The notes: generated from the letters alone by a model not told the origin. A stretch of DNA of 64,000 nt from Candidatus Hermodarchaeota archaeon (GCA_016839805.1 JAEOTO010000015.1:50373-114372); one strand, 5' to 3'; shown: positions 15,813-36,071, numbered from the stretch's first letter. Numbers and translations are program-made.

Positions 15813-17165
15813 CTAATTTGTGGGAATGGATAATTTAGTCCAGTCAACGAAATCTTCGCGTTTACGGTCAATGCGCGTACTTAACCAGGTAATAAGGTCA
15901 TGAACAGTTTTGATAGCAGCAGGGTGCATCATCATGAAAACATCCACACCTGCTAAGAGGAACATCAGTGCTGTTGTACTCTCCCAAATAGGTCCTCGAA
16001 GCTCTCGGGGTCCCAATTCAGGTCGTTTCATCCAGGCTTCCCGGGCTGCCCAGGCATTTGTTGTGCCACTACTTAACGGAAATTGAAGTTCTGAATCCCC
16101 TAATAATCCCGCTAATCGCATGCGTTCCATGATGGTGAAACTATACTCCGCACCATAGCCCAGAGCTGCCGTTGTCGGATCGATGATAATTTGATCCGGG
16201 GTGATGTAATCGAGGAGTCGACGATTGAGTTCCTTTTGCTGGTTGATATCAATGCTAGTCCAAGAGAGTACAAGTTGATTATGGGCCTTAGCTGCTTTGG
16301 CCACAGGTTCCCACATATCGACGGTAGCTGACGCAAGCAGGACACGTTCGCCTTCAGCGACTTCAGCAGCCTTAGCGAGTATTTCGGCATCCTTCGTTGG
16401 ATCGCCGGAACCCCCGACGATGATTGGTACCTTTACTGCCTGTAATACCTTTTCAAAACCTTTCATTGCCTCTTTTACGCTTGTATCCTCGAGGAGGGGA
16501 TCGGTGCTAATCATGTGATAAGTGATGAAGTCTGCATCGAATTTGTCGATGACGAGTCGTGCCCAGTCGACAGGATCATCCATGACATCATCGTAATGGA
16601 CACGAACAGCTTTGGCGAGTTTAATCCGCATGTCAAAGACGTCAGCAGCGACAACAGGTAGATGCTTTGGTGAAGACTGAAAGAGATTCCAGGCAGGAGT
16701 CTTATGGCCACCCACTGTGATCGTTTTACTTCGCGATCCGCCTTCGGCTTTTGTAGCACCAAGAGTGATTTCACGGATTTGACCGGAATACTCTGTTAGT
16801 GGTGCCTTGAAACGGGCTTTAAGTAACTTATCAGGGCGAACAGCTGTCGGAATCCCTGGGATGGACACAGATGATTGCCCAGTGGACATTTGTACATTGT
16901 ATCCCAAGGCTGCGAGCATTTGCTGGGCAAATTGTTGCATGGCAAAAGCGTTTTGCGCGAGGAATTGGTGAGCTGGTCCAGCTATACCCCCAACACCTCC
17001 TGGGGGAACAGTAACTTCGAGTTCATCGACATCAATGGTTATCTCTTCCAGTTCCAATTCTTGGAACTTGCCAAATATGGCTTCCAGGGGACCTAGAATA
17101 CCTAGTGCGGGATCATCTCCGGACAGCACGAGCTCGTTTTTCTCTTTCTTCTTTTTTGGCGACAT
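15813..17165 (-). CDS. cdhD: CODH/ACS delta subunit (corrinoid Fe-S protein small subunit)
   Basis: GGSG.P.KD.E, IDPTT.ALGYG.EY, ERMRLAGL.GD, WE..TA, MMMHP. Confidence 0.95.
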   Translation of the reverse strand: MSPKKKKEKNELVLSGDDPALGILGPLEAIFGKFQELELEEITIDVDELEVTVPPGGVGGIAGPAHQFLAQNAFAMQQFAQQMLAALGYNVQMSTGQSSVSIPGIPTAVRPDKLLKARFKAPLTEYSGQIREITLGATKAEGGSRSKTITVGGHKTPAWNLFQSSPKHLPVVAADVFDMRIKLAKAVRVHYDDVMDDPVDWARLVIDKFDADFITYHMISTDPLLEDTSVKEAMKGFEKVLQAVKVPIIVGGSGDPTKDAEILAKAAEVAEGERVLLASATVDMWEPVAKAAKAHNQLVLSWTSIDINQQKELNRRLLDYITPDQIIIDPTTAALGYGAEYSFTIMERMRLAGLLGDSELQFPLSSGTTNAWAAREAWMKRPELGPRELRGPIWESTTALMFLLAGVDVFMMMHPAAIKTVHDLITWLSTRIDRKREDFVDWTKLSIPTN

Positions 17166-17180
17166 GATTCATCGCCTCGC

Positions 17181-18611
17181 CTACTTCTTCGCCTTTTCAT
17201 CCAGGCGTTTTATTATGACCTTTTCAGCGTAGATTTTTGCATTCTTGAAGATAATCTGGAATCCTGGACTACCACCAGCCGCAGGCACAGTGGTCATCAT
17301 TTGACCTGGCATCATGAAAGGTTGACTAGCTTGTGTCGTTGGAGCTGCTTCTTCAACGCGTTCTTCTTCCTCAAGGCGAGCCGCTGCACCAGTTTCAGTC
17401 CAGCGCTCAACGACTGGGTGATTATGGTCTTGTAGGTATCGTTTTAATTCATCGATATCAGAAACATCGTTTTCTGTAGGAATGATATCTCTCAGATTAT
17501 CAGGCATGAAGTCATAGATTCTGTCTTTGATAGCTTTGGGCAACCAGACAACTCTTTCCCACCCTCCATCAACTTGAAGGAATTTGGGTGATCGCATATA
17601 TTCTATCGAAACCCCATGAAAACCAGGAATCTGGCGACCACCAGCTGTCGAATCAGCCATCGTTGAAAATGGCAAGCCATTTACAGAAGGACCCTTGTAA
17701 TCACGGTGAACTAAACCAAGACCATCAACTTCTGGGATGATAAAAGCAATTGCTTCGAAACAACCACAACTAGTATGTGGTTTATCAAAAGCACTATACA
17801 AACATACCTCAGTAACCGCACCCAAGGTTTTTTCCTTGTAGGCTTGATTAACCCCCTTGTATTCGCCTTTGAACTCATCAATGACATCACCTTTCTCTAT
17901 GGAAAATAAAGGTCCCTTCGGATCAACACGTGCAGCCGCACGACCATCGAACCACGAAATCGCACCACAATTTGCATAGCGCTGTGCAGTAATGGTACAA
18001 CAATGGGTTGGGGCAAAACTTTGGCAGAGTGTGCAACCATAAAAGACATCAACCTCTTCGTCTTTTAGACCACGAGCGCGAGCGTCACGTTCATCATACC
18101 GTTTTATTGCAGCATCGAATTGTTCAGCGATTTTATCAGGATCAGTAAAGAAGGTGATTTGGATTTTCTCGATAATAGGTAGTTCACTCTTGTAAAGGCG
18201 TTCGTAAACTTGACCAAATACCTTAAAGGAATTGAGTCCTTTTTGGAATGATTTCTTGCTAATGCGAATCCAAATGTCGTATCTTTGGTTTAGGTGCATA
18301 ACCCCTTCCATGAAGTTGGTATATTCGTGGACGTGGCGTTCGAGGACGCCCTCCAGGTCTTCTTCGACTTCTTTACCTGCAACTTCTATCAAGATTCCAA
18401 GCGGATGGTAACCTCCTTCGTCCAAATCTTTGAGATCAGGACCAACGACAGTAATTTTACCATCTTCGACTTCTGCAGCTTTCTTGGCGAGAACGAGTTC
18501 GAATTTCTTTTCGATTTTTGGTCCGCCGAGTTCGACTTGCATATCGCCCTTGCGAATGCGTTCACCCTCATAGATTACACCTACTTCCATTGGGAGATCT
18601 TCGAATGACAT
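17181..18611 (-). CDS. cdhC: Acetyl-CoA synthase beta subunit
   Basis: YEGERIR, FYGCTLCQSFAP, NCGA, PHTSCGCFE (A-cluster ligands intact). Confidence 0.97.
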   Translation of the reverse strand: MSFEDLPMEVGVIYEGERIRKGDMQVELGGPKIEKKFELVLAKKAAEVEDGKITVVGPDLKDLDEGGYHPLGILIEVAGKEVEEDLEGVLERHVHEYTNFMEGVMHLNQRYDIWIRISKKSFQKGLNSFKVFGQVYERLYKSELPIIEKIQITFFTDPDKIAEQFDAAIKRYDERDARARGLKDEEVDVFYGCTLCQSFAPTHCCTITAQRYANCGAISWFDGRAAARVDPKGPLFSIEKGDVIDEFKGEYKGVNQAYKEKTLGAVTEVCLYSAFDKPHTSCGCFEAIAFIIPEVDGLGLVHRDYKGPSVNGLPFSTMADSTAGGRQIPGFHGVSIEYMRSPKFLQVDGGWERVVWLPKAIKDRIYDFMPDNLRDIIPTENDVSDIDELKRYLQDHNHPVVERWTETGAAARLEEEERVEEAAPTTQASQPFMMPGQMMTTVPAAGGSPGFQIIFKNAKIYAEKVIIKRLDEKAKK

Positions 18612-18612
18612 T

Positions 18613-19158
18613 CTATTTCTTACCTCCATTTTTAGTGAGGATTTCTTTTAGTGCATCATTCCATTTTTGTTTCTTTAAATTCGGGAAGGACCACGACGCA
18701 TGGGGTTGGAAATACCGACCTAAACTGACAGTTTTCATTTCAGTGGAGAAGTTGACTAGGGCGGAGAGCATTAGCCACTCCATATAATAGGGGAAACCAA
18801 AGGTCATGACAAGGTCATGCGGGCCCTTCTTCGGTGCCACCATCCATTCAGGGTCAGTCAGTAGATATGTGATTTCCATAGCGTTGTGGGAGTATACGTT
18901 TTTGAATCCTTTTTCCTTGAAGGCTTTAATGGTTTGAGCGGTTGCGACAATGGGGATGTTCCAATTCTCGGAAAATTCGATGAAGTAGTCAATCATCGAC
19001 TTTTTCCGAGTTTGCTCTGTTAGGCTGTTGGCACCCACAACAAGAAGAGGATGTTTTGCTTTCTTGAGAAGTGCCTTGACCACGACGGGTTTTTCGAGTG
19101 ATTGGGCTTTCTTTGGACCACAGACTTCAGCAGTCTGCCAGGGTTCAGCACGCATCAT
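18613..19158 (-). CDS. cdhB: CODH/ACS epsilon subunit
   Basis: AKHPLLVVG, DPEW...HDLV, QPHASWSFPN; lies between cdhA and cdhC. Confidence 0.93.
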   Translation of the reverse strand: MMRAEPWQTAEVCGPKKAQSLEKPVVVKALLKKAKHPLLVVGANSLTEQTRKKSMIDYFIEFSENWNIPIVATAQTIKAFKEKGFKNVYSHNAMEITYLLTDPEWMVAPKKGPHDLVMTFGFPYYMEWLMLSALVNFSTEMKTVSLGRYFQPHASWSFPNLKKQKWNDALKEILTKNGGKK

Positions 19159-21510
19159 TTACCCATCACCTCCACCATAGACCATACGCTGTAGAATTGT
19201 TGGATCTGGAATGGGCTTCTCTTGCCATTTGTGTTCTTTCATGTGAACGTGGATTTTATCTTTAAGGGTGATGGGGATATCCGATTCTCGGCGAATGAAG
19301 CTATGTACGTCGTCAGGGAAGTAACCATAGTACCGTTCATGAAGATCGATGTAGTGGCTGAGCTTTATGGACCGACCTCTGCTAGTGTCGTTGGGTCGGA
19401 AGCAAAGCTTTGCGGTCATTACCATGCACTCTTCCATAGTTTCTACTGCATAGAAGAGGTGTTCAGGAGCTGGCGCAATTTGGACTTGGTTGCCAGTTCG
19501 TGCATCGTACACCTTCCAGTCCTCTGCTTTGTCTGCACGTCCAAGTAACATTCGGCGATATTTCGTTCCATGTGGACCAACGATTACTGGAACTCCAAGG
19601 CGCCAAAAGCCAGAAGCAATTGAAGCTGCTTTTTGTGACATAGCGCCCCAAGATATACCAACTGCACCAACTCGGTTGAGGATGTAGTCAGCGATTTCTT
19701 CATAGTTTCCACGAAGGTTACGTTTCGCGAAGATGCTTGCAATTTTGATGGCAGCACCCGCAATGTGGGGATTCGAAACACAGGAGCCCACGTTAACGAC
19801 ACCACCTGCATCAAAAGCGCCCGTACGTCGTTCGTAGATACTTTTTCCTTCTTCGTCTTTAACAGTACCAACAGTCATAGCTGCGCAACCAGAGAGTACA
19901 ATGATGAAGCGGCGTTTTGCGAATTCTTCAGCCATGTCATGAATTGCTCGTCCTCCGTCAGGATAATTAGCACATCCAACATGTGCAATTACGCCTGGGA
20001 TTTCTCCGAAAACAACAGGTTGCCCCACGGCCCGTATCTCTGTATCTTTGATGGCACCACGCCCTGTCCGAACCTTAAAGGACTCGTTCATCCAACGATC
20101 TTTTGCTGCAGTAACCATCCAGCTATGAAGCTCATATTCGTTGGGACAAGCTGATTCACATCGCGCACATCCAATGCATTCATCATAAACATCTACAAGT
20201 GGACCAAAGTTTCCTTCAGATGCTGCTAGTACTGCTTCCATGACTGGTTGATCATTGGGACAAGCCCTTCGGCATTCTGAACATTGTCGGCAGGTTTGGG
20301 CGAGTTCTTTAATTTTGTTCTTGCTTGGCAATGAGGATTTCTTCTTACGTTTTGGTTTCACAGCCAGAGCAGTCTTTACGACTACTTCACCCACTTTACT
20401 ATGGTCGCCAATGAAGACTCCAGGCACTTTAAAGGAGACTAAATCAGCAACAATCGCATCCACATCATCATTTGTACGATCTGGTAAGCCCATACAAGAT
20501 TTATCACAAGTAGCAATAACTGGTGTTTTGACTTTTGCTGCATGCAATGGAATATCTGTCCGAATACATTGTTCATCAACAACCAAAACGTCAGCTAAGC
20601 CACTTCGCACAAAACGTAGTTGCCAAGAGATAGGACCGACAATCTTGGCTTTGGAGTCATGTCTGGTTATATCCCAGGCTGTGCAGCAAATTCCACTGAC
20701 ATCGACCTTATCTTGGAGTCCGTGCTCCATTGAATAATCAGTTATCGCTGCAGCGGGAACAACATTGTGTCCGATACATAGGATCGTAGCTTTTGACTGA
20801 TCCATGGAGGCGATGCCAGCTTCAACTAATGGTGCCTCTGGATCTGATTGGGGAAAGCCCATTGTGGAGATTTGAACCAGATCCGCGATTTCCATCCCCA
20901 CTTGGTCAATCATTCCAGCATGAAGTACCTTTGATTCAAAGTCTAACCAACTGCCCTCTTGACCCGTATGGACTGCTGACAAAGTATGTGTAAGTTGAGT
21001 TTCACAATAATCGATAATCGATGACGCATCTTCTAAAGAACGAGGGCGAATTCCAGTTACTAACCGTGAAACAGGAGCTTCAATATCTACACCCTCGCCT
21101 TGCGTTAAAGGTGTTCGTGGACCAAATTCATGAATCAAATGATCAACAAGATGTCGAGCATGCGCCAAGTGTGCCGCACACCCGATGTTCGCGGCAGCCA
21201 ACACAATTCGTGCGGACTGTCCCTTAATGTCCAGACCACAAGCTCCGCGTTTTCCACCCGTCAGGTCACATTTACCGAAGGTACAAAGACAGCACAGCTG
21301 ACAAGCTGGCATGTATGAGGGTTGGTAACGCTTCAGGAGTTTGTGGTCCCAATCGCGAAGCGTGGTGACTTCTGGCATGGGAGTTGGTCCCATGGGTTCG
21401 TCCCAGTCTTCATCGATAACTCTGCCAATACTGACTTCGACGTTGCGGAAACTTCCGAAACCGGTGTCAAGTCGATCGGCTCGTATTCGGGCCCGTTTTT
21501 GTTCTGTCAA
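19159..21510 (-). CDS. cdhA: CO dehydrogenase alpha subunit
   Basis: MGPTP.P, CQLCCLCTFGKC, GHNV, GICCTA, DEQC, two ferredoxin motifs, GSCVSN; start probably TTG 21510 rather than 21612. Confidence 0.97.
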   Translation of the reverse strand: MTEQKRARIRADRLDTGFGSFRNVEVSIGRVIDEDWDEPMGPTPMPEVTTLRDWDHKLLKRYQPSYMPACQLCCLCTFGKCDLTGGKRGACGLDIKGQSARIVLAAANIGCAAHLAHARHLVDHLIHEFGPRTPLTQGEGVDIEAPVSRLVTGIRPRSLEDASSIIDYCETQLTHTLSAVHTGQEGSWLDFESKVLHAGMIDQVGMEIADLVQISTMGFPQSDPEAPLVEAGIASMDQSKATILCIGHNVVPAAAITDYSMEHGLQDKVDVSGICCTAWDITRHDSKAKIVGPISWQLRFVRSGLADVLVVDEQCIRTDIPLHAAKVKTPVIATCDKSCMGLPDRTNDDVDAIVADLVSFKVPGVFIGDHSKVGEVVVKTALAVKPKRKKKSSLPSKNKIKELAQTCRQCSECRRACPNDQPVMEAVLAASEGNFGPLVDVYDECIGCARCESACPNEYELHSWMVTAAKDRWMNESFKVRTGRGAIKDTEIRAVGQPVVFGEIPGVIAHVGCANYPDGGRAIHDMAEEFAKRRFIIVLSGCAAMTVGTVKDEEGKSIYERRTGAFDAGGVVNVGSCVSNPHIAGAAIKIASIFAKRNLRGNYEEIADYILNRVGAVGISWGAMSQKAASIASGFWRLGVPVIVGPHGTKYRRMLLGRADKAEDWKVYDARTGNQVQIAPAPEHLFYAVETMEECMVMTAKLCFRPNDTSRGRSIKLSHYIDLHERYYGYFPDDVHSFIRRESDIPITLKDKIHVHMKEHKWQEKPIPDPTILQRMVYGGGDG

Positions 21511-21721
21511 TGTGGTTCGTTCCTTCCATTTGCGCGCATAGTAGGAGGGAAATATTGGTGAAATAGTAGCAGTTTCGCCTTTAAGTTTTGATGCTTCTGC
21601 AAGGTTTTGCATTAACGGTGTATATGTTCAGGGCTTACTGACCGTCAACTTAACATCCACAATCCACTTAGCACTCACAGTAATTCGATGGTGAAAATGA
21701 ATAGAGAATTATATTCATGTC

Positions 21722-25222: not shown

Positions 25223-25828
25223 TTAGTCTTTTGGTTTACGAAGTTTTGGAAAGATAGCTCCGGTCCGTTTTTGGTACTCGCGATACTCATCCCCAAAGCG
25301 TTTGATGAGATCCTCTTCCTCATAATGGATGATAATAGGACTAACGATGATAATCATGATGATGGCCCAAATAACTAGGAAAAGGGAGTTAATGAAGAGA
25401 GGAATGATAACAAACCAGGGCATCTCGCCTACGGCTTGGGGGTGTCGAATGTAGTTGTAGATACCGCCATACATTTGTGTAGTTTCGGAGGGTATCATGG
25501 TTTCCGGACCAGCATCTTTGATACCTTTGATCCAAATAGGTGTGAATATGATAGCAAGAATTACGCCAATGAGGATGCTTACGAGATGACAAGGGTTAAC
25601 GAACCAGGCTAGTTCTTGAATCGGGAACCATATCCACAGGATAAAATTTATCGTCATAACTCCCATGAGGATTCCCGATGTGGCTCGGAACCGTTTAGAA
25701 TCTTGCCAGGCTTTCTCACCATATTTTTCAGAACGAGAAGCTGGTTGAACGCTAAGGATGTAAAAGTACCAACAAAATATCGCTGCAATATTTAGGATAA
25801 TGAAATTTGCCCAAGGAATTAATGTCAT
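25223..25828 (-). CDS. ICMT/PEMT-family membrane methyltransferase (paralog 3)
   Basis: GIYNYIRHPQ, EE.DL..RFG.EY..YQ. Confidence 0.85.
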   Translation of the reverse strand: MTLIPWANFIILNIAAIFCWYFYILSVQPASRSEKYGEKAWQDSKRFRATSGILMGVMTINFILWIWFPIQELAWFVNPCHLVSILIGVILAIIFTPIWIKGIKDAGPETMIPSETTQMYGGIYNYIRHPQAVGEMPWFVIIPLFINSLFLVIWAIIMIIIVSPIIIHYEEEDLIKRFGDEYREYQKRTGAIFPKLRKPKD

Positions 25829-26451
25829 CACGAGTCAGCTTTTGTAATTTTAGTCCGATTCCTTCTAAGTTTGGGGATTAGTGCAGGTATAAGTTTTCGA
25901 TAGTCAATGTAGTCTTGACCAAATCTTTTCACCAAATCTTTCTCTTCAAAATAAATCGCGAGAGGCGTATAGATCAGGACGAATAATGTCATCCATAATA
26001 CTAGAAACCAGGAATTCAAGAAAAATCCTAGAGCAATATACAAGGGCATTTCCCCCAAAGCTCCTGGATGTCGAATGTGGTTATAGATTCCTTCATGCAT
26101 TGTCGTTTCTTCATGTGCTGCACCATGTTCCTTTCCACCATCTTTCATTGCCTTGAACATGATAATAGAAAAGGGGGTAGCGATTCCAATCCCCAAAGCC
26201 ATTGGAATAAATGGATTTAAACTAATAGGCCAGATGAATGAGGGAATCGGGAACCAAAGCCAAAGAATAGCATTGATGATTACAATGAAGATGGCAATGA
26301 AGCAGATTTGTCGGAGCCAAAAGCATCTTCGCCAAGCCTTTTCTCCCCATCTCTCTGACAACGTTATGGGTAATGTGCTTAATATACTTGTAACTGAAAA
26401 AATCACGACGAACACATACATGCTAACAAAATTCAACCAATTACCAATCAC
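25828..26451 (-). CDS. ICMT/PEMT-family membrane methyltransferase (paralog 2)
   Basis: GIYNHIRHPG, EEKDL..RFG..Y. Confidence 0.85.
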   Translation of the reverse strand: MIGNWLNFVSMYVFVVIFSVTSILSTLPITLSERWGEKAWRRCFWLRQICFIAIFIVIINAILWLWFPIPSFIWPISLNPFIPMALGIGIATPFSIIMFKAMKDGGKEHGAAHEETTMHEGIYNHIRHPGALGEMPLYIALGFFLNSWFLVLWMTLFVLIYTPLAIYFEEKDLVKRFGQDYIDYRKLIPALIPKLRRNRTKITKADS

Positions 26452-26626
26452 ATTATCGACTCTTTTCTTAGTTGAATTTTTGATCGATGATTATTCTTTA
26501 GGGAACTATATATAAAAAGTTAAATTTAAATGTTAATTAATTGCTATAATTATTAGTATTTATTCTAATATAATACTGAGTGCCTATAATAAATACCCCA
26601 ACAAACGCAACATAAATTTTGACTGT

Positions 26627-27235
26627 TCAATTGGAATCGTTCCTTTTCTTTAATTTAGGGAAAAGGGCTCCAGTCCGTTGTTGATATTCACAGTATTCAT
26701 CACCAAATCGTCGAATCAAATCCTTTTCCTCGACATAAATCATGATTGGAAGATAAATAAGAATGAAGATAAATGTGTAGACTAACAGGAAGAGAGAATT
26801 AACTACGAAGACTAAGACAAAGTACCAGCTCATTTCACCAAGTGTTTGGGGATGTCGGATGTAGTTGTAGATACCGCCAAACATTTTTGTTTTTGTTGAT
26901 GGTGTCTTCGCTTCATCCCCAGATTCTTTTAGACCCTTGTACACAATAGGCAGGGTGCTGAAAAAGATGATGAAGGCAATGGCGTATCCAATCCATGGAT
27001 TGAAGAATATTAGCCAGGCGAGTTGGGGAACTGGAAACCATAGCCAAAGAAACATGGTGAAAAGTTGAATGACCATGAAAATTGTGCCAATTGTTCTGAA
27101 CCGTTCACAGAGTTTCCAGGCGTTTGGTCCACGTTTTTCTGCTAATTTTGCAGGCATAAGACTGGGGATGTAGAATCCTGCAAAGAGTGCACCACTGATG
27201 AACAGCATAGCAAGGTTGAACCATGGGATTAGCAC
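26627..27235 (-). CDS. ICMT/PEMT-family membrane methyltransferase (paralog 1)
   Basis: GIYNYIRHPQ, EEKDL.RRFG.EY. Confidence 0.85.
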   Translation of the reverse strand: MLIPWFNLAMLFISGALFAGFYIPSLMPAKLAEKRGPNAWKLCERFRTIGTIFMVIQLFTMFLWLWFPVPQLAWLIFFNPWIGYAIAFIIFFSTLPIVYKGLKESGDEAKTPSTKTKMFGGIYNYIRHPQTLGEMSWYFVLVFVVNSLFLLVYTFIFILIYLPIMIYVEEKDLIRRFGDEYCEYQQRTGALFPKLKKRNDSN

Positions 27236-27301: not shown

Positions 27302-28096
27302 TTATAAACTTAAGTGCCTACGCAGTTCTGGAATAAGACCCTGGATGGCGTTGATAGCTGGGGAATCAGCCGCAAAATCTAATGGGGCAATACCTTCGAT
27401 ATTGGCTTGGCGGATGGCCTTATCAAAGGGTATTACAGTGAGTAGAGGGATATTCAACTCATTTAGAGTTGTTTCGATAACTTCTTTGTCGGTTTCGTCC
27501 ATTACCTTATTCGCTATTGCAAAGACTGTATCGACACCGATATCATGGGCGAGTTTCATGATTCGTCCCACGGTATTGATGGATGTCTGACTTGGCTCAA
27601 CTACAACAAGTAATGCATCCATTCCCTTTGATGTGCCTCGACCAAGGTTTTCAATTCCTGCTTCAAGATCCATCACAAAGGCTTCATCCATTCCAACAAT
27701 TAAGTACCGAATTAGCGCCTTCAGAAGAGCACCTGCAGGACACATACATCCGGATCCTCCAATGGTAACGGTTCCAGCGACAAGGAGGGTAACATTATCT
27801 GGTCCAGCTATTCCAAATTTATCTGCTAAATCGGCTACGTGCGGATTGAGTTTGAACATCTGACCATAAACTTTGGGATCCATACCTGTTCGTTCTTTCA
27901 CTAATTCATCGTTTTCAGTTAGTGGGATAATCTTGTCAGCAACATCAGAAGGAATACCTAACGTTGCAGCCAATGTTGGTGTGGGATCAGCATCTACAGC
28001 AAGTACTCGGATACCCTCTCGGCCTAATAGACGAGCTAGGGTTCCTGAAACAAGAGTCTTGCCGACACCACCTTTTCCAGCTACTGCGATTTTCAT
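27302..28096 (-). CDS. cooC: CODH nickel-insertion ATPase
   Basis: GKGGVGKT, DADP, GSGCMCP, DLEAGIE.LGRG. Confidence 0.93.
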   Translation of the reverse strand: MKIAVAGKGGVGKTLVSGTLARLLGREGIRVLAVDADPTPTLAATLGIPSDVADKIIPLTENDELVKERTGMDPKVYGQMFKLNPHVADLADKFGIAGPDNVTLLVAGTVTIGGSGCMCPAGALLKALIRYLIVGMDEAFVMDLEAGIENLGRGTSKGMDALLVVVEPSQTSINTVGRIMKLAHDIGVDTVFAIANKVMDETDKEVIETTLNELNIPLLTVIPFDKAIRQANIEGIAPLDFAADSPAINAIQGLIPELRRHLSL

Positions 28097-28160: not shown

Positions 28161-29450
28161 CTACAAAACGGCTAACCATGATGCCAGCTGTTCTAACACT
28201 TGTACTTCAGTAGGAATGTTAGCTGGTGGCTTAGTTATAGGTTGAACGGGAACAGCGGATCCATCCATTCGGTAAACTACACCAGTCGTTTCTACGCCTG
28301 TTACAGCTGTAGGAATCACAACTGTAGATTCACGTGTTGTAAGACTGGGATGGGTTGAAAGGGTGATGAGTGGAATTTTCTCAAGCGCCCTTGCGATTGG
28401 CGCAGGTAACATACTGAGTGGGTCCCAACCCACGATTAGTGCAGCATCGAACTCGTTAGCGATGAGTCCTTTAAAGACTGATTTGTAGGGTCTAGGGGGT
28501 TGACGGTTGAAATCCACTGAATAGGGTATTTTTGTATCAGTTTGGCTTGCTGTCACAACGCCTATACTATTACAATATGCGACCATAGGAAGAGTAACGC
28601 ATGGTCGGCTCTTCTTGTTTAATACTCGAGCGACCTTCGAAAGTAATGGTAATGTTTTCGAAGCATGAGGTGAATGGAGTAACCCATTTCCATAAAAGAT
28701 TGCGATGTAGTTCGCTTCTTGAATTTGTTTAGCAAAACTGAGAAACTCGATGGCGGGTATTCCTCCAACTTTGACAGGTGGGGTTCCAGTTGTGCCCTTG
28801 ATTTCAGTTAGGAGCGTAGTTAAAAACTGTTCATCACCATTCTTGAATTCGAGAATGAGTTGGTGGTTGGCCAGTCGCATGGATTCAGTCTGTCGAATAT
28901 CTAATACGGCAACGGTTCGACTTTCCCGACCCTCTGGTATTTTTTCTCCTGTTGGGAAGACAGTATAACGGCTGGCATGGCGGTGGTGGCTCTCGGCTGG
29001 GTTGACGCCCCAATAGACGATGAAATCTGCAAGGTTCCGGATATCCTCGAGGTTAACTGTTCCTGTTTCACCACCCACTAACTTATGTTGACGAAGTTGA
29101 CCATACTCAAAGCTTGCGGTGCTATCATAGACTCCCTTCAAAGACTTGGCAAGTTTCAAACCTAAATGTGAAACTTCGATTGGACTATTGGACCAACCAA
29201 TTAGCAAGGGACGTTGACTCGAGGAGAGAATGGAACTTGCTTCTTCATAGGCTTTTTTGAATGGAATAGTTTTAGCACTTGTTGATTTGGCTTTCATCTG
29301 AGCTTTCTTTAGCCGCGTTTGACTTCGTATTGACGAATAATAAGCATGACCAAGAGCACATAATCCGAGTGACTGAATGCCAGTTTTTGTTACTTTTGCA
29401 GCTACATCATCACAGACAACAGAGCATCCGCAACAAACCGTATCTTGCAT
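28161..29450 (-). CDS. fwdB: Formylmethanofuran dehydrogenase subunit B-like protein, catalytic residues substituted
   Basis: CCGC..VCDD and C.LG Fe-S ligands, WG.NP.ESH.RH.SRY, G..YRMDG; DSTASFEYG replaces the usual TASVCHG. Confidence 0.85.
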   Translation of the reverse strand: MQDTVCCGCSVVCDDVAAKVTKTGIQSLGLCALGHAYYSSIRSQTRLKKAQMKAKSTSAKTIPFKKAYEEASSILSSSQRPLLIGWSNSPIEVSHLGLKLAKSLKGVYDSTASFEYGQLRQHKLVGGETGTVNLEDIRNLADFIVYWGVNPAESHHRHASRYTVFPTGEKIPEGRESRTVAVLDIRQTESMRLANHQLILEFKNGDEQFLTTLLTEIKGTTGTPPVKVGGIPAIEFLSFAKQIQEANYIAIFYGNGLLHSPHASKTLPLLSKVARVLNKKSRPCVTLPMVAYCNSIGVVTASQTDTKIPYSVDFNRQPPRPYKSVFKGLIANEFDAALIVGWDPLSMLPAPIARALEKIPLITLSTHPSLTTRESTVVIPTAVTGVETTGVVYRMDGSAVPVQPITKPPANIPTEVQVLEQLASWLAVL

Positions 29451-29481
29451 AAATTCCCCGACCTACAGGAATGTGCATCCA

Positions 29482-29949
29482 TTACCAGATTTCAATCGCT
29501 TTCACATAACAACCTTGTTCACAGACTCGACAATTCATCCGATCTGGAGGAAACCGTCGGCATTTTTCGAGATTAATAATTTTTGCAGTGCCATTTTCAA
29601 CACGAAAAACCGTGTCTGTCGACCGAGCAGCTTTACCACTAGCTGTGTCAGGTTCCGCAGAGGCATCTACAGGACATACGACGACACAGTTCCCACAACC
29701 GGTACACATGGTATCATCAAGTTTAACTCCCGTTTCTTCAGCAGCCAGTAAGGGTGTTATTAATTCATTGATGGTGGCAAGCTGGGTAGCATATTGTGGG
29801 TTCTCATGAAGAGGTGGACAATCCTTGAGTTCGACCTCGCGAAGAGCTAGACGTGTCGCAAAAGCCATACAGGTCATTCCACATTGTTTGCAATTGGTTT
29901 GGGGAAGGAGTTTATACAATTGCATTGGATTGAGCTTTTTGTCAACCAT
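29482..29949 (-). CDS. fwdG: FwdG-like ferredoxin fused to an N-terminal CdhE/RnfB-type Fe-S domain
   Basis: LPQTNCKQCG.TCMAFA...CP, then CTGCGNCVVVCP...C....C..C...C; directly upstream of fwdB. Confidence 0.75.
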   Translation of the reverse strand: MVDKKLNPMQLYKLLPQTNCKQCGMTCMAFATRLALREVELKDCPPLHENPQYATQLATINELITPLLAAEETGVKLDDTMCTGCGNCVVVCPVDASAEPDTASGKAARSTDTVFRVENGTAKIINLEKCRRFPPDRMNCRVCEQGCYVKAIEIW

Positions 29950-30116
29950 TCGATCACGACACAGTTCTTAAGTAATCTTGAACCTGTGTGTACCTTTATC
30001 TGTTCGGTAACGACTATATGATTTGTTGTAGTGTTTGCCTCAATAATTAAATCAGAAGATGGTAAGGTAAGAAGTGTTATAGCGTCTCATGTTGCATCGA
30101 AACATGGCATAGTCAT

Positions 30117-32579
30117 ATGGTGACATCCGTGTCAAAGTCCACAAAGCGAAAAAAGGCCAAACAAAAAACTTCGCGTAGGAAACCCCGGAAGCAATCTACA
30201 CCTCAAGGGGCCCTATTCATTTGTCATTGTGGAAGCAATATTGAAAGTGTTATTGATATTGATCAACTGAAACAGTATTACAAGACGCGACCTAATCTCA
30301 TTGTGGTGGATGATGCACACTTTTGTGTTGAACAGGGACTCAATTCGATTCGTGATACAATTCGAGACAATAAAGTTGACCATGTGGTTGTAGCGGCCTG
30401 TTCTCCTCATCTTCATGGAGAATTAATGAGTCAAACCGTAGAAGAGGCTGGATTGAATCGAGGGCACCTTGCTATTGCTAACATTCGTGAACAGTGTAGT
30501 TGGGTCCATTATGGTGACCCGGAAGCAGCGACCACGAAGGCTCGTTTGATGATTGATGCCGCTATGAAAATGGCTGAGCATAGTCTACCTCTCCATTCAA
30601 TTGATATTCCTATAACAAAACGAGTCCTAGTGATTGGTGGAGGAGTTGCTGGTATTATCACCTCATTACAACTTGCCAATGCCGGCTATGAAGTAATTCT
30701 TGTTGAAAAAACGGGTTTCTTGGGAGGTCACATGGCTAAATGGGACAAGTTGTTCCCAAGTTTGGATTGCAGTTTATGCATTCTAGGACCCATAATGACT
30801 CAGGTTAACACCCATCCCAAAATCAAAACATTAACCCTTAGTGAAATCACAGATGTCCAGGGAACTCCTGGTGCGTATGATGTCCAGATCCACCAAGAAC
30901 CTCGTTATGTCGATTTAGAAACCTGTAACGGCTGTAATAAATGTCTTGAAATTTGTCCGATAGAAGAACCCAACGAGTATAATTATGGCTTGGGATCTCG
31001 CCGAGCGATTATCCGACCCTTTCCAAATTCAGTTCCGCTTGCTCCATACATCGATATGGACGCATGTGTCGGCTGTCAATCGTGTGTCGGTGTGTGCGAA
31101 AAGGAATCTATTCGATTCGAAGATATAGATCGTGATTATACATTCAAAGTGGGTGCCATCGTAGTTGCAACAGGATTCCAACCATTTAACCCACAATCAT
31201 TAGCTGAGTATGGGTATGAGAGATATACTGATGTTATTACCGCACCAGAATTGGAACGATTAATGAATCCCACAGGGCCTACAAATGGGATTGTTGTTAA
31301 TCCATCCACTGGTAAGCAACCGAATAAGGTCGCCTTCGTGCAATGTGTCGGGAGTCGCGATATTCGAATTGGTCGACCTTATTGTAGCCGAATCTGTTGT
31401 ACTTACGCTGTCAAGGAAGCAGTGCAACTGCGTTTAGCTCAACCAGAAACGGATGTATACATTTTCTATACCGATATGCGAACCTTTGGCAAAGGTTTCG
31501 AAGAACTATATGAACGAGCGGCACGAGAACATGGTATCACATTCATTCGCGGTCGTGTAGCAGAAGTCGAAGAGGATCCTCAAACAAAGAAGCTCATTAT
31601 ACGTGCAGAGGATACCGAACTTTGTGAACCTATTGAGCTACCAGTTGACATGGTAGTATTAAGCGTGGGAGTTGATCCTTCACCCACCAACGCGAAGCTC
31701 GCAACCATACTTAATATTCCCCTAGATGAAAATAACTTCTTTCTTGAGAAACATCCCAAACTCGACCCAACAGGAACCTATTCCACTGGCATTTTTCTTG
31801 CTGGAAATTCACAGGGTCCAAAGGATATTGCAGATACAGTGGCTCATGCCGGATTAGCTGCAGCTCAGGTTTCCGCCTTACTTCATCGGCGTAAGCTTTC
31901 ACTTGAAGTGATCGCCCCACTTTTGGTGGATGCAAATCTGTGTGAGGGATGTAGGCTGTGTGAAAAAACCTGTGATGCCAATGCCATCTCCTTTGAAAAT
32001 TCTTCTCTTCCAGAAATTGATGAACTAGCATGTACTGGGTGTGGAGCATGTGTTGCAGCCTGTCCTACTGGTGCTCTAGACCTCCCAGGATATACGCGTC
32101 AACAATTGATGGCAGCGGTAAATGCGGCCTGTACTGACAACCCATTCCAACCCGTTATTATTGGCTTCCTCTGTAACTGGTGTGCTTATACAGCTGCAGA
32201 TAGCGCGGGAGTGAATCGTTTGCGATATCCTCCCCAACTCATTCCTATTCGAGTACCGTGCAGTAGTCGTTTAGATCCACTGCTGATTCTTGAGGCTTTT
32301 AGTCAAGGAGCTGATGGTGTAGCGATTTTGGGGTGTCATGACACTGATTGTCATTACAGGACTGGTGTTGCAAAAGCGAAAACGCGTATTGATAACCTGC
32401 TTCCTCTCCTTGGTGAGATGGGGATTAGTGTTGATCGGATTTTCTTTGGAAGCACCGCAGCGTCAGAAGCTGGACATCTTCAAGAACTCATCTCTGACTT
32501 TGTGAAATTTATTGCTGAGTTGGGTCCACTAGGTGCCGAATTAACAGTGACGACAAAAACTCGTAAGCATAGAAGATGA
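30117..32579 (+). CDS. hdrA: Heterodisulfide reductase subunit A fused to MvhD
   Basis: CHCG.NI, ACSP, NIREQCSWVH, GGGVAG, QCVGSRD, YCSRICC, GPKDI; C-terminal GFLCNWCAY, RVPC, DGV...GC...DCHY. Confidence 0.93.
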   Translation: MVTSVSKSTKRKKAKQKTSRRKPRKQSTPQGALFICHCGSNIESVIDIDQLKQYYKTRPNLIVVDDAHFCVEQGLNSIRDTIRDNKVDHVVVAACSPHLHGELMSQTVEEAGLNRGHLAIANIREQCSWVHYGDPEAATTKARLMIDAAMKMAEHSLPLHSIDIPITKRVLVIGGGVAGIITSLQLANAGYEVILVEKTGFLGGHMAKWDKLFPSLDCSLCILGPIMTQVNTHPKIKTLTLSEITDVQGTPGAYDVQIHQEPRYVDLETCNGCNKCLEICPIEEPNEYNYGLGSRRAIIRPFPNSVPLAPYIDMDACVGCQSCVGVCEKESIRFEDIDRDYTFKVGAIVVATGFQPFNPQSLAEYGYERYTDVITAPELERLMNPTGPTNGIVVNPSTGKQPNKVAFVQCVGSRDIRIGRPYCSRICCTYAVKEAVQLRLAQPETDVYIFYTDMRTFGKGFEELYERAAREHGITFIRGRVAEVEEDPQTKKLIIRAEDTELCEPIELPVDMVVLSVGVDPSPTNAKLATILNIPLDENNFFLEKHPKLDPTGTYSTGIFLAGNSQGPKDIADTVAHAGLAAAQVSALLHRRKLSLEVIAPLLVDANLCEGCRLCEKTCDANAISFENSSLPEIDELACTGCGACVAACPTGALDLPGYTRQQLMAAVNAACTDNPFQPVIIGFLCNWCAYTAADSAGVNRLRYPPQLIPIRVPCSSRLDPLLILEAFSQGADGVAILGCHDTDCHYRTGVAKAKTRIDNLLPLLGEMGISVDRIFFGSTAASEAGHLQELISDFVKFIAELGPLGAELTVTTKTRKHRR

Positions 32580-32693
32580 AGGCTTATAGTTGGTTTCGCT
32601 CTCCTATTAGACCAAGTCTAGGATGGCAACAACCATTAAAGGTGTTAATTTGTAAGGCTAGAATAAGAACCTCTATTTGAAGAGATGCTCTAG

Positions 32694-34178
32694 ATGACCA
32701 AAGCGCAAAGGGACCGCATCATTGTTGGTGAACGCCCCAAAGTAACCAGTGAGGTTCTTGACGATACTAATATCCGCTATAATTGGAAAACCTCAATTCT
32801 TTATAAAAATCTGAAATATGACTTATCCCGTTGTGTTGGGTGCAGTCTCTGTCTTCCTTGTCCCTGGGATGCTATTACTTTAGGACCCGTTCAGGAAATT
32901 GCAGCAGGACGCCTTGAGGGCGCTCCCTTGATTTTGATTGATGAGGATAAATGTACTTTCTGTGGGTTATGTGATTCAGCCTGTCTTTTCAATGCCATAG
33001 AAGCTCGATTTGATGATATACCCGCAGATGCCCAATATTCTCGTTTAAAGGGAAAACATGAACTTGACGAGGACAAATGTGCCCCCTGTCTGCTTTGCGC
33101 GAAAATCTGTCCAAGGGATGCAATATCCGTTGATCTGAAGGTTACACCTAAAACCGAACTCGTTCAATACAAGAATCCCAAAGCGGCCCAACGTGTAGCC
33201 GATGGTGTCCCTGATGCAAAAGGCTCAATAAAAATTGACGAGGACAAATGTACCTGGTGTGGACTATGCGAACTACTTTGCCCGGAATGTATCACTATCT
33301 ACTGGCTTGAAGAGAAGCCCAAACCTCCTGATTTTACTGCAGCTGTTGGCATCAGGGTAGACACCAAATATTGTGACTATTGTGGTCTATGCGAAAAGAT
33401 CTGTCCCTCTGATGCTGTTCATGTTGAATGTGAGAGTTCACCACACCGTACCATTAAAGATCCAGAAGTCGATGGCACCATGACCATTGATGACGGATTG
33501 TGCGTGGATTGTACGCTTTGCGCTGATAAATGCCCTTATGAAGCCCTTGATGTCACTCTCCCCTTAACTGGAGCTATTGAGATTCAAAACCTCGAAAAAT
33601 GTGATCCCACAGGCTGTGTTAATTGCTTCAATATCTGTCCAACAAAAGCTATCTATGCCACAGGAGATAAGGACAAAATCGCAATAAATGAAGAGATCTG
33701 TGTTTTTTGTGGGGCATGCGAAAATGCATGTCCCGAACAGGTTCTGAAGGTGACACGTGACAGTTATCAATTGTCTCAACTTGAGAAAGCTCGGGACTGG
33801 GAACGCGCTCGCGCACACAGATTCTATGACCACTTAATCGGACGTGATATTCCACCCAACGATATCTACGAGCGAATCATTAAGGTCCCCCCAGTAAAAC
33901 ATCCACCTGGGGTACAGACCAAAACGGAAAAGTGGTCTACAGATACAGCAAGCCGCCATTTAGCCCAAGACCGAATTCAAAAACTACAACAAATCATCCG
34001 AAAGAATTGGCGGCTTCGACTACTCTTTGAAAGAGGTCGCATTGATCCGCTCTGTACTGCGGTCCAAAAAGAGGTTAATAACAAAAAAATATCTAAAAGT
34101 AAAAGCAACACAGCGCCTGTAAAACACAAGGACCCAGCAAAAAAATATAGTAAAAAAACTAGACCCAAAACCCGATGA
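32694..34178 (+). CDS. fwdF: Polyferredoxin, FwdF-like
   Basis: About eight CxxCxxCxxxCP-type motifs; lies among fwd-like genes. Confidence 0.75.
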   Translation: MTKAQRDRIIVGERPKVTSEVLDDTNIRYNWKTSILYKNLKYDLSRCVGCSLCLPCPWDAITLGPVQEIAAGRLEGAPLILIDEDKCTFCGLCDSACLFNAIEARFDDIPADAQYSRLKGKHELDEDKCAPCLLCAKICPRDAISVDLKVTPKTELVQYKNPKAAQRVADGVPDAKGSIKIDEDKCTWCGLCELLCPECITIYWLEEKPKPPDFTAAVGIRVDTKYCDYCGLCEKICPSDAVHVECESSPHRTIKDPEVDGTMTIDDGLCVDCTLCADKCPYEALDVTLPLTGAIEIQNLEKCDPTGCVNCFNICPTKAIYATGDKDKIAINEEICVFCGACENACPEQVLKVTRDSYQLSQLEKARDWERARAHRFYDHLIGRDIPPNDIYERIIKVPPVKHPPGVQTKTEKWSTDTASRHLAQDRIQKLQQIIRKNWRLRLLFERGRIDPLCTAVQKEVNNKKISKSKSNTAPVKHKDPAKKYSKKTRPKTR

Positions 34179-34180
34179 TC

Positions 34181-34558
34181 TTAGGGTAATTCCTTGATTT
34201 TGGTAAGGGGTCCCTTACTGGGTTTAATAATGACCGTTGTGCCCTGGCTAGGGATCATGGATTCAATGACCGCGTATGCCCAAGGACTGGGTTGCATAAC
34301 CACAATGCTTTCCGGTTGTTCTTCTTTCAATTTCGCTGCCACAACCACAGAACCAATTTTCGAACCCACCTCGACAAAATCGCCTTCTTTTATATCCAAT
34401 CGCTGTGCATCACGAGTCGAGAGAGTAATTTGGGCTGCGACCTTCTCGTATTCTTTGGATATTGTTCCTTGACTTATCTGAACCACATCGACATCCAGTG
34501 CCCGGGCTAGAACTAATTGCGCTTCTATCTGTGGGTAAAGGAAATCACGCAGTGCCAA
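34181..34558 (-). CDS. fwdD: Molybdopterin dinucleotide-binding domain protein, FwdD-like (divergent)
   Basis: DA.RL.I.EGD.VEV.S..GSVVV, M..SPWA. Confidence 0.75.
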   Translation of the reverse strand: MALRDFLYPQIEAQLVLARALDVDVVQISQGTISKEYEKVAAQITLSTRDAQRLDIKEGDFVEVGSKIGSVVVAAKLKEEQPESIVVMQPSPWAYAVIESMIPSQGTTVIIKPSKGPLTKIKELP

Positions 34559-34692: not shown

Positions 34693-35373
34693 ATGGTGGC
34701 CTATTCTAGTGTAACTCGTCCATTACAACCCTTTATGACATACACGCTGATTCTGTTAAACACCACCATTTTCATTCTGCAAACCATGTATTTCCCACTC
34801 ACTTACCTCTTTGCCATGTACCCCATCCAAATAGTAACAGGGCAGAACCTCCATACCCTCATTACAAGCACCTTCTTGCACGCCGACTTCTTCCACCTGC
34901 TCATTAACATGTATTTTCTCTACATCTTTGGAAGCGTTGTCGAACGCGAAATGCACCCCTTAACCTACCTCCTCCTCTACACCCTCGCTGGAATAATCGG
35001 TGGACTTGGTCATATTCTCATCGTTTTTACTATTAGTCTGCCCCTCGACCCATTAGGACCCCTTATCCCCACCATTGGCGCATCAGGTGCCATCTTTGGA
35101 ATAATGGCTGCATACGCCTATCTCCTTCCTCGACGGCCTGTCGGAGTATATGGTGCCACACGCACAATGGGCGCATGGAATCTCATCATCTTCTATTTCA
35201 TCATCGAAGTTATGTCAATTTTCATCTCAATTGGCAGTGGTGTTGCCCATGGTGCTCATGTTTTTGGCTTTGTCGGGGGTTACCTTTTTGCCCTCTTGTA
35301 TCGAAACATTCGTTTACAAATGAATCGACGAAAACCCGGTGCAGAATACGATCCCTATGAGTACTATGTATGA
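34693..35373 (+). CDS. Rhomboid intramembrane serine protease
   Basis: FLHA...HL..NM, GASGA, AH..G. Confidence 0.93.
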   Translation: MVAYSSVTRPLQPFMTYTLILLNTTIFILQTMYFPLTYLFAMYPIQIVTGQNLHTLITSTFLHADFFHLLINMYFLYIFGSVVEREMHPLTYLLLYTLAGIIGGLGHILIVFTISLPLDPLGPLIPTIGASGAIFGIMAAYAYLLPRRPVGVYGATRTMGAWNLIIFYFIIEVMSIFISIGSGVAHGAHVFGFVGGYLFALLYRNIRLQMNRRKPGAEYDPYEYYV

Positions 35374-35381
35374 GGTCGTAG

Positions 35382-36071
35382 GTGGACGTAATGGCAAAGC
35401 ATGATACGGTTGCAGTTATTCCGATACGGTTTGTACCATCACCAAAGCACCGGCTTGCTGAAATTTTTGATGAGCGTTCTCGTCAGCAATTAACTGAAGC
35501 AATGCTTGAAGATGTATTGACTGCAATTAAGACCTCTACGGGAATAACGAAGGTCGTTATTGTTACAAATAATGAGAACATACAATTGATTTCAAATCTT
35601 GAAGGCTTTGATGTTATTAAGACCCGAATTTCGGATCTAAATACTGAATTATTAGACGCAGCTAGTTCATTATCAAAAGCGGGTTGGAAATGGGTAATCA
35701 TCGTTTTAGCTGATCTTCCACTTGTTAAGGGTGAAATCCTTGATCAAATCATTCTTCATGGTCAAAAGAAAGAAAAATCGATTATCGCTCAGGATTGGCG
35801 AGGGACTGGAACGAATATTCTTTTTACAAAACTCCCCTTTCAGTTTCACATCCATTTTGGTCACCAAAGCTTTAAGGCTCATATAGCAGAGTTCGAAAAG
35901 AACAATCACCAGTGGCTGAGTTTTCATTCCCTAGAATCCGCATTGGATATTGATGACCTTGAGGCTATCCAAAAATTCATGTTTCTAGCACAAAAAAAAC
36001 CTGCAATCCAAGCTACTAATACGTATCAAATACTTCTCACTCTTCACTCAAAGGTTAACAAGAAAGAGTAG
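35382..36071 (+). CDS. cofC: 2-phospho-L-lactate/PEP guanylyltransferase (F420 biosynthesis)
   Basis: K.RLA, AMLEDVL, ADLPL, GTGTN, FG..SF..H, LDIDD. Confidence 0.85.
   Translation: MDVMAKHDTVAVIPIRFVPSPKHRLAEIFDERSRQQLTEAMLEDVLTAIKTSTGITKVVIVTNNENIQLISNLEGFDVIKTRISDLNTELLDAASSLSKAGWKWVIIVLADLPLVKGEILDQIILHGQKKEKSIIAQDWRGTGTNILFTKLPFQFHIHFGHQSFKAHIAEFEKNNHQWLSFHSLESALDIDDLEAIQKFMFLAQKKPAIQATNTYQILLTLHSKVNKKE

Follow-up and report, generated by a model that had tools for sequence, protein, structure and literature searches.

In methanogens, HdrA-based bifurcating complexes send low-potential electrons through the polyferredoxin FmdF and through FmdG to FmdB's [4Fe-4S] cluster and tungstopterin (PMC13580544). 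The Hdr-Fmd supercomplexes of this kind (7BKB and 9SW6/9SFI; PMC13580544, PMC13518236) contain HdrA, MvhD, FmdF, FmdG and FmdB/D, and it is their FmdF that wires HdrA to Fmd. Here we describe a gene cluster in a 64,000-nucleotide stretch from a Candidatus Hermodarchaeota archaeon (GCA_016839805.1, JAEOTO010000015.1:50373-114372; the whole stretch is henceforth referred to as the window) that encodes the same parts, namely an HdrA-MvhD protein, a FwdF-type polyferredoxin (FwdF'), a FwdG-type protein (FeS-FwdG', or FwdG'), a FwdD-like domain-IV protein (FwdD') and a FwdB paralogue (FwdB'). This module differs from the Hdr-Fmd supercomplexes in lacking FmdA and FmdC, in having a MopB end subunit devoid of the catalytic residues, in the fusion of HdrA to MvhD and in a CdhE-type domain on its FwdG; moreover, it lies beside cooC and the cdh genes of CO dehydrogenase/acetyl-CoA synthase (CODH/ACS) instead of hdrBC or fmd, and its host is not a methanogen. 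Reasoning by analogy, we give about an even chance to the reading that it is a Fwd-derived electron wire or dock coupling HdrA bifurcation to CODH/ACS, in which FwdB' would no longer reduce CO2. The evidence is comparative throughout, and the genomes compared are metagenome-assembled genomes (MAGs) that carry inconsistent NCBI taxon names.

FwdB' has much in common with FwdB/FmdB (5T5I_B, 8RJA_B, 7BKB_H): fold, length, N-terminal [4Fe-4S] motif, a separate domain-IV partner and FwdG- and FwdF-type neighbours. Its whole length matches TIGR03129, the FwdB/FmdB equivalog, at 305.6 bits (curated cut-off 327.8), and from one end to the other it aligns with FwdB chains, those of 8RJA, 5T5I, 9SFI, 7BKB and 9SW6 (phmmer against the PDB, E 1e-54 to 1e-46, the best values being 1e-54 with 8RJA and 1e-52 with 5T5I). 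This alignment is almost gap-free, and large loop insertions are absent. STASFEYG of FwdB' falls on NTASVCHG of FwdB, which puts Glu115 and Tyr116 at the positions of Cys118 and His119, and PMVAYCN falls on PMRGHYN, with Val290 for Arg288, Ala for Gly289, Tyr292 for His290 and Cys293 for Tyr291. Also changed are R214, N266 and T282, all near-invariant in canonical FwdB. [quoted passage not shown] A preliminary description, made by a model from the sequence alone, had read the catalytic residues as replaced, the iron-sulfur cysteines and the WG.NP scaffold as kept and the protein as one that does not reduce CO2. The alignment bears it out on each point, canonical CO2-reducing FwdB function being impossible without Cys118, His119 and Arg288. 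The cysteine of AYCN (Cys293) was considered as a substitute ligand at the Mo/W site and ruled out, since this position is Ser or Ala in several members of the clade. FwdB' is therefore best placed outside FwdB/FmdB in the functional sense: it scores under the cut-off, has neither the ligand nor the His nor the Arg, and has no fwdA or fwdC adjacent. It also falls in a separate clade, with ~28-33% identity to canonical FwdB, the FwdB of its own genome included.

The AlphaFold2 model of FwdB', built from 28 clade members (mean pLDDT 85.6), has the fold of MopB domains I-III of FwdB. Its top Foldseek matches are FwdB chains (8RJA_B, 5T5M_B and 7BKB_H, TM 0.87-0.90), and the match to FhcB is weaker (TMq 0.66). 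FhcB (6S6Y; PMC6926001) is the other FwdB-derived protein to have lost Cys118, His119 and Arg288, and it acts as a scaffold. The preliminary description had called FwdB' 'FhcB-like', which as a family assignment had to be rejected: FhcB has no Fe-S domain and no domain-IV partner, its loops clash with the pterin site and it is encoded with fhcA, C and D (PMC6926001), whereas FwdB' retains the Fe-S domain, has a syntenic FwdD' and is part of a redox module. Closest to it in concept, among published proteins, is the non-catalytic 'Molybdop' protein that type II HdrA-FdhB clusters of Methanosarcinales and anaerobic methanotrophic archaea (ANME) encode, likewise a MopB protein without the ligand Cys that is encoded with HdrA and MvhD, and proposed as a structural part of a bifurcating complex (PMC12054007). 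Its relatives are FdhA/FdhG/FhcB, on another branch of MopB, its partners are FdhB and HdrBC, and its hosts are methane-metabolising Halobacteriota, whereas FwdB' derives from FwdB, has FwdD', FwdF' and FwdG' as partners and is CODH/ACS-linked in Asgard archaea and Thermoproteota. A cofactor-less MopB fold also serves as scaffold in other multi-cluster electron-transfer or bifurcating complexes, as in Nqo3/NuoG of complex I and NfnABC/StnABC (9BOV_A), but these are distant from FwdB' (E 1e-5 over ~90 residues) and are domains of larger subunits.

FwdB' proved to be a well delimited and conserved protein. We searched 5.8 billion proteins and found ~57 homologues that share 51-86% identity with it, beyond which identity drops abruptly to ~35% or less. 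In each of them the motif S[TS]A[SN]xEY is present, as is P[ML][VIF]xx[CAS]N, with Glu115 and Tyr116 invariant (hence E-Y clade in what follows). Among 1.84 billion cluster representatives searched, this clade is covered by a single one, after which the scores drop from 537 straight to 310 bits. The organism belongs to the Asgard archaea, within the Hermodarchaeum group; public records list the homologues under the names Hermod-, Prometh-, Thor- and Hodarchaeota, and the closest locus (L013) comes from a 'Hermod' MAG whose CdhA is 98.6% identical to that of the window. Between these two genomes the ratio of nonsynonymous to synonymous substitution (dN/dS) of FwdB' is 0.14 at a dS of 0.52, against 0.07 for FeS-FwdG', 0.09 for CooC and 0.035 for CdhA, and across loci FwdB' diverges faster than its partners (53-69% versus 78-85% identity); constraint on it is relaxed yet clearly present. 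The gene was found in all 18 genomes of the window's GTDB family, with the reading frame intact in every copy. Across the 18 genomic copies the invariant Glu is written GAA in 10 and GAG in 8, and the Tyr TAT in 12 and TAC in 6. The four N-terminal Cys are invariant in the clade alignment and in all those of 149 family sequences (see below) that have a complete N-terminus. The loss of all catalytic residues and the score under the FwdB cut-off would suit a decaying or functionless duplicate, but to this explanation we leave next to no chance: the frame is intact, selection acts at a dN/dS of 0.14, all family genomes carry the gene, Glu-Tyr has stayed the same through synonymous codon turnover and synteny is kept. 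The preliminary description had allowed for canonical orthologues alongside a decaying copy in this genome; instead, all family orthologues have Glu-Tyr. Pseudogene decay was therefore excluded on the selection and conservation data, which argue for a conserved paralogue under purifying selection.

To place the clade within the family we used a FastTree phylogeny of 149 sequences (~134 of the nearest representatives at 50% clustering, to which clade members and copies from the loci were added), midpoint-rooted and with the topology taken without support values. The E-Y clade has as its sister a clade whose ligand position holds Gly, and the two together are sister to Thermoproteota proteins that have Cys-His but Ser or Ala for Arg288. 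Arg288 is missing in all module-linked FwdB' examined, mostly in favour of I, A, S or V, with F or T in some Thor-like copies. Cys-His or Cys-Gln is kept in the module-linked proteins of Thermoproteota and of six Asgard families; the Hermod family has E-Y instead, and the Thor-like family G/A with L, A, T, M, P or V behind it, which points to two losses of Cys-His, one to E-Y and one to G/A-x. Given that the distant syntenic orthologues keep Cys-His and lack only Arg, a metallopterin may have been part of the ancestral protein of the module, and the term 'pseudoenzyme' of the preliminary description goes further than the data; conversely, since the Gly/Ala-ligand sister clade keeps the same module beside cooC-cdhABCD(E), the role shared by the two clades would need no side-chain metal ligand. 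The canonical Cys-His-Arg triad occurs in just 16 of the 149 FwdB-family sequences, the variants including CHS, CHA, CQA, GL and many others, and much of the 'FwdB' family is likely not a CO2 reductase.

FwdD' has changed in step with FwdB'. Domain IV (PF01568) of MopB enzymes contacts the guanine dinucleotides. In the Fwd complex this domain, as FwdD, caps the tungstopterin site (PMC6926001). Orthologues of FwdD' that accompany a Cys-His-type FwdB' keep RT..QG, those of the E-Y type lack both the loop and the T..QG part, and the sole Thor-like Gly-type FwdD' checked (L028) is without the motif. Compared with canonical FwdD, for which the reference was two sequences only, FwdD' of the E-Y clade has the TGRT..QG motif replaced and the TGMPxxK C-terminal loop deleted; its divergent N-terminus had been noted in the preliminary description, and the C-terminal deletion is additional. 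This co-variation favours a cofactor site that was lost or remodelled in the two ligand-less lineages. FwdD' matches PF01568 above the Pfam cut-off (E 1.5e-11, 44.7 bits versus 26.8), and its PDB matches are FwdD (8rja_D, 5t5i_D). It starts with TTG in the window and with ATG at the same position in homologues.

The main alternative reads the same residues in another way, in which FwdB'D' would still be an enzyme, with a W/Mo-bis-pyranopterin or another metal centre held by Glu115 or by no protein ligand at all, and would catalyse a redox reaction on something other than CO2 or formate with HdrA electrons arriving via the polyferredoxin. Both the domain-IV cap and the electron-input [4Fe-4S] cluster are kept, unlike in FhcB, Glu115 and Tyr116 are strictly invariant, the alignment to FwdB runs almost without gaps, the NPAESHHRHASR..PEG.ESR block is hyper-conserved, and the syntenic orthologues with Cys-His and without Arg suggest a non-formate chemistry in the ancestor. 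What makes an enzyme unlikely to us, though with a real chance of being right, is that in the sister clade, which has the same module, the ligand position is taken by Gly or Ala and the residue after it varies. In addition, FwdD' of the ligand-less lineages is without TGRT..QG and the TGMPxxK loop, R214, N266 and T282 are replaced as well, and FwdB' evolves faster than its partners. We know of no Glu-ligated MopB enzyme, which also counts against this alternative. A MopB enzyme that functions without a protein ligand does exist in arsenite oxidase, AioA (PMC10100899). Of 48 positions invariant in canonical FwdB, 33 are kept in the E-Y clade versus 32.7 in ligand-less homologues with FhcB-like motifs, a comparison that does not discriminate between retention and loss of the cofactor.

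The remaining members of the module are best read as true homologues of FwdF, FwdG, HdrA, MvhD and CooC. In FeS-FwdG' (PF04060 and Fer4) the C-terminal half has FwdG (9sfi_U, 5t5i_G) as best PDB matches, aligned through the FwdG-specific insertion between Cys motifs, so the label 'FwdG' of the preliminary description holds for that half, while the N-terminal 75 residues match solely the CoFeSP (corrinoid iron-sulfur protein) large subunit in the PDB and hit NF003195 (CdhE) over residues 4-75. The protein is thus a fusion with a CdhE/AcsC-type N-terminal Fe-S domain, one that is 42% identical to the N-terminus of CdhE from the same genome. HdrA-MvhD matches NF040770 (HdrA2) over positions 4-776 of 777 at 921.9 bits (cut-off 1100) and PF02662 at residues 681-803, with PDB matches to HdrA (to E 1e-185) and MvhD (E 7e-35); 'HdrA2' was dropped as a specific label, as the unfused HdrA on contig C46 scores higher on NF040770. 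The polyferredoxin reaches 219.8 bits on NF042909 (FwdF; cut-off 375), has eight Cys motifs that can be read in its sequence and aligns over the full length of FwdF/FmdF (9sw6_H, 5t5i_F, 7bkb_K; E 1e-44). Lys/Arg-rich tails are present at the N-terminus of HdrA-MvhD (30117-30206) and at the C-terminus of the polyferredoxin (about 34080-34178). CooC has CooC1 (3KJE, E 4.7e-40) as its best PDB match and keeps CxC, with GSGCMCP versus GSQCYCR. Together with the equivalog matches of cdhA to cdhD, this confirms the earlier identification of a genuine cooC and of cdhABCD in the window.

The strongest evidence for a functional connection between module and CODH/ACS comes from gene order. A first-round set of 21 loci from species-representative genomes (16 of them informative on cdh) was complemented with twelve further regions from other Asgard families. 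Wherever the contig was long enough, the 21 loci held the order FwdD' >, < polyferredoxin, < HdrA-MvhD, FeS-FwdG' >, FwdB' >, CooC > (arrowheads give direction), and the divergent layout around the intergenic region between FeS-FwdG' and hdrA-mvhD, presumably a shared promoter region, is the same in all Hermod-family loci. CooC adjoins FwdB' in all Hermod-family and Thor-like loci, and FwdG' and FwdB' are adjacent and co-directional in every locus. The genes cdhA-B-C(-D) lie beside the module in 13 of the 16 informative loci, and cdh does so in 6 more loci from other families. The arrangement nevertheless varies. In five Thor-like loci and L028 the full module directly abuts cooC-cdhABCD, with cdhE next in L028; in L050 FeS-FwdG', FwdB', HdrA-MvhD and polyferredoxin are co-directional and cooC-cdhA-cdhB is found on the FwdD' side; and in the Thermoproteota loci L029 and L030 cdhC-B-A is on the FwdD' side in the opposite orientation. 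Three Thermoproteota MAGs have the same gene set at 33-37% FwdB' identity, with cooC missing or just distantly similar. The linkage to cdh has therefore survived at least three different arrangements, in Asgard archaea as well as Thermoproteota, which argues for the association with HdrA-MvhD, polyferredoxin and CODH/ACS that had been suggested from the window alone. At none of the loci screened did we find fwdA or fwdC adjoining the module, and no canonical fwd gene stood beside it in the Asgard loci examined; Thermoproteota L027 alone has a canonical fwdD-like gene ~3 kb downstream.

The rest of the assembly (2.3 Mb in 50 contigs, 87% complete) shows that the organism has a conventional Fwd as well. 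A canonical fwdB (523.6 bits on TIGR03129, with SVCHG and LRGHFN) lies on contig C23 together with fwdA and fwdD, fwdC is on C30, and C46 carries hdrB, hdrA, mvhD and a [NiFe] large subunit. The preliminary description had reported fwdA, fwdC, hdrB and the [NiFe] large subunit as absent from the window and had raised the question of a second, intact fwdB; the former are all on other contigs and the latter is the C23 gene with its Cys-His-Arg motifs, which makes FwdB' an extra paralogue and not the sole FwdB of the organism. Directly beside the canonical fwdD there is a ~350-aa paralogue pair with a weak nucleotidyltransferase-fold match (C23:44418-46535, and likewise L027:7627-9764 in a Thermoproteota MAG). 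A second HdrA-MvhD fusion, 38% identical to that of the window, is found at C34:5746-12790, followed by hdrA, mvhD and a [NiFe] hydrogenase large subunit, and in all there are four HdrA paralogues in the genome versus one clear hdrB. The gene cdhE stands alone at C5:10653-12065, apart from the cdhABCD of the window; in the Thor-like L028, it follows cdhD.

With a complete canonical set at hand, HdrA-MvhD, FwdF' and FwdG' might instead serve canonical FwdABCD, and FwdB'D' would be an inactive alternative or regulatory paralogue that replaces FwdBD. Such a service would follow the established Hdr-Fmd supercomplexes with their FmdF connector (PMC13580544; PDB 7BKB, 9SW6, 9SFI). FwdABCD is present in the genome, though scattered, and no other FwdF' or FwdG' homologue was found in this 87%-complete assembly by tblastn with the module proteins, FwdF' matching nothing above 45 bits. 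It is the neighbourhood that makes us regard this as quite improbable: cdh and cooC are repeatedly beside the module, canonical fwd genes are beside none of the Asgard modules examined (only the fwdD-like gene of L027 comes near one), and the constant adjacency and co-direction of FwdG' and FwdB' argue that these two are mutual partners.

Returning to a wire or dock towards CODH/ACS, FwdB' would assemble with FwdD', the CdhE-domain-bearing FwdG', the eight-cluster FwdF'-type polyferredoxin and HdrA-MvhD into an iron-sulfur cluster chain of Fwd origin. The methanogen Hdr-Fmd supercomplexes suggest, by analogy, that this chain would be the low-potential arm of an HdrA flavin-based bifurcating or confurcating complex. 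That the parts are those of Hdr-Fmd minus FmdA/C, with an end protein devoid of catalytic residues and with cooC and cdh as neighbours, suggests that the arm was redirected, so that its end point would be CODH/ACS (Cdh) rather than a tungstopterin CO2 site and FwdB'D' would be a relay or a structural end-piece. Medium-potential donor and high-potential acceptor would come in trans, e.g. as MvhAG and HdrBC from elsewhere in the genome. In this picture residue loss, purifying selection, module composition and linkage to cdh are observed, whereas physical assembly, the direction of electron flow, loss of the cofactor and contact with CODH/ACS are inferred. The likely contact with CODH/ACS would be the CdhE-like domain of FwdG', the N-domain of CdhE being seen to dock on ACS in the 9FZY structures, where it was called an interaction anchor (bioRxiv 10.1101/2024.08.05.606187). 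Taken to its full extent, and put forward only tentatively, the proposal is an Hdr-CODH/ACS supercomplex of Asgard archaea and Thermoproteota, in which the Fwd-derived wire (FwdF', FwdG' and FwdB'D') would channel low-potential electrons of HdrA-MvhD directly into CODH/ACS, or collect them during acetyl-CoA oxidation, tethered by the duplicated CdhE docking domain.

The docking domain also lends itself to a different role, that of a bifurcation-driven, ATP-independent reductive activator of ACS or its corrinoid, in which the CdhE-like domain of FwdG' would occupy the CdhE docking site of ACS and bring in very low-potential electrons, by which Co(II) or the A-cluster would be reduced again. FwdG' has in its N-domain a duplicate of that of CdhE, which docks toward ACS, activator and methyltransferase (bioRxiv 10.1101/2024.08.05.606187), and the module is linked to cdh; all of this is equally compatible with bulk electron delivery to CODH, however, and an eight-cluster polyferredoxin with HdrA would be a heavy apparatus for occasional repair. 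We hold such a purely inferential role to be very unlikely.

Several observations weigh against an electron wire or dock to CODH/ACS. FwdD', a dedicated cap subunit, has been kept and FwdB' has acquired no large loop insertions relative to FwdB, while AioA is active without any protein ligand (PMC10100899). The module-linked orthologues of Thermoproteota and of several Asgard families still have Cys-His, and the module may originally have been catalytic. The hdrBC genes and the donor module are outside the gene cluster, two loci (L021 and L025) have no cdh within ~9 kb of the module, and cdh synteny could come from shared regulation of the Wood-Ljungdahl pathway rather than from physical coupling. 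Finally, the support for all members of the module is comparative rather than biochemical, expression-based or structural.

Table. Features of the window considered here (positions counted from its first nucleotide).
Feature	Position	Strand	Basis
FwdB', FwdB paralogue, 429 aa; [4Fe-4S] motif intact, without equivalents of Cys118, His119 and Arg288	28161..29450	-	TIGR03129, PDB phmmer, AF2/Foldseek
Codons of Glu115-Tyr116, at the site of the FwdB W/Mo ligand Cys118 and of His119	29103..29108	-	PDB alignment
PMVAYCN in place of PMRGHYN (Arg288 to Val290)	28569..28589	-	PDB alignment
N-terminal Cys6/9/13/31 motif for [4Fe-4S] cluster	29358..29435	-	alignment
FeS-FwdG', CdhE/AcsC-type N-terminal [4Fe-4S] domain and FwdG-type 2x[4Fe-4S] ferredoxin	29482..29949	-	PF04060, Fer4, NF003195
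Intergenic region with divergent flanks (FeS-FwdG'/FwdB'/cooC array on one side, hdrA-mvhD on the other)	29950..30116	.	gene arrangement alone
HdrA-MvhD fusion, 820 aa	30117..32579	+	NF040770, PF02662, PDB matches
FwdF-type polyferredoxin, eight Cys motifs, basic ~120-aa C-terminal tail	32694..34178	+	NF042909, PDB FwdF/FmdF
FwdD', domain IV (Molydop_binding), pterin-facing motifs altered	34181..34558	-	PF01568, PDB FwdD
CooC, CODH Ni-insertion ATPase, directly downstream of FwdB'	27302..28096	-	PDB CooC1 match
cdhA-cdhB-cdhC-cdhD (CODH/ACS), on the strand of FwdB'	15813..21612	-	NCBIfam equivalog matches above cut-offs

The five open reading frames of the module have the boundaries that the preliminary description had assigned to them. 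The interval between cooC and cdhA holds a tandem of three membrane methyltransferase paralogues of ICMT/PEMT-like type, along with an Amidohydro_1 protein and a calcineurin-like metallophosphoesterase (25223-27235, 23967-25169 and 21722-22792, all on the minus strand). The methyltransferase and the amidohydrolase are kept there in 11-12 Hermod-family loci; the Thor-like loci have neither, and their cooC is immediately next to cdhA. The amidohydrolase was considered as a substitute for FwdA and not counted in the module, being a generic Amidohydro_1 protein with a 38-bit N-terminal FwdA match and absent from the Thor-like loci. On the FwdD' flank there are a rhomboid-like membrane protein (34693-35373, plus strand) and a CofC-like guanylyltransferase (35382-36071, plus strand), the position being kept in 8 loci. 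The latter (PF01983, E 5.6e-28, with a weak MobA-like match and 37-43% identity between loci) has a possible link to F420 or to a guanylylated cofactor. In eight relatives (e.g. L011:5124-6815, L019:3731-6809 and L020:3651-6809) hdrA-mvhD is separated from the gene of the polyferredoxin by an insertion that encodes one or two ~460-570-aa proteins, their N-termini hydrophobic and signal-like; nothing is inserted there in the window.

Our literature searches found no published description of this module or of its link to cdh, Asgard homologues of FwdB and FmdF being mentioned just in general terms (PMC10100899, PMC13580544): 83 Asgard FwdB homologues have been counted and some members of the FwdB family noted to be without the Cys (PMC10100899), and uncharacterised FmdF groups have been recognised in Asgard archaea and Bathyarchaeales (PMC13580544). 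As public records annotate the FwdB' genes as 'formylmethanofuran dehydrogenase subunit B', metabolic reconstructions can miscount them as CO2-reducing Fwd, and the count of 16 canonical triads among 149 sequences implies that a large part of the 'FwdB' family is functionally uncharacterised. The supply of very low-potential electrons to the Wood-Ljungdahl pathway of Asgard archaea and the role of their numerous HdrA paralogues in the absence of methanogenesis are standing questions that bear on the hydrogen and syntrophy models of eukaryogenesis. The module offers a concrete and widely conserved candidate, an HdrA bifurcating unit whose output arm would be a remodelled Fwd complex genetically tied to CODH/ACS. 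If the supercomplex proposed above is real, 'all-in-one' machines that couple CO2 fixation to bifurcation would come in a second kind, found outside methanogens, in the lineage closest to eukaryotes.

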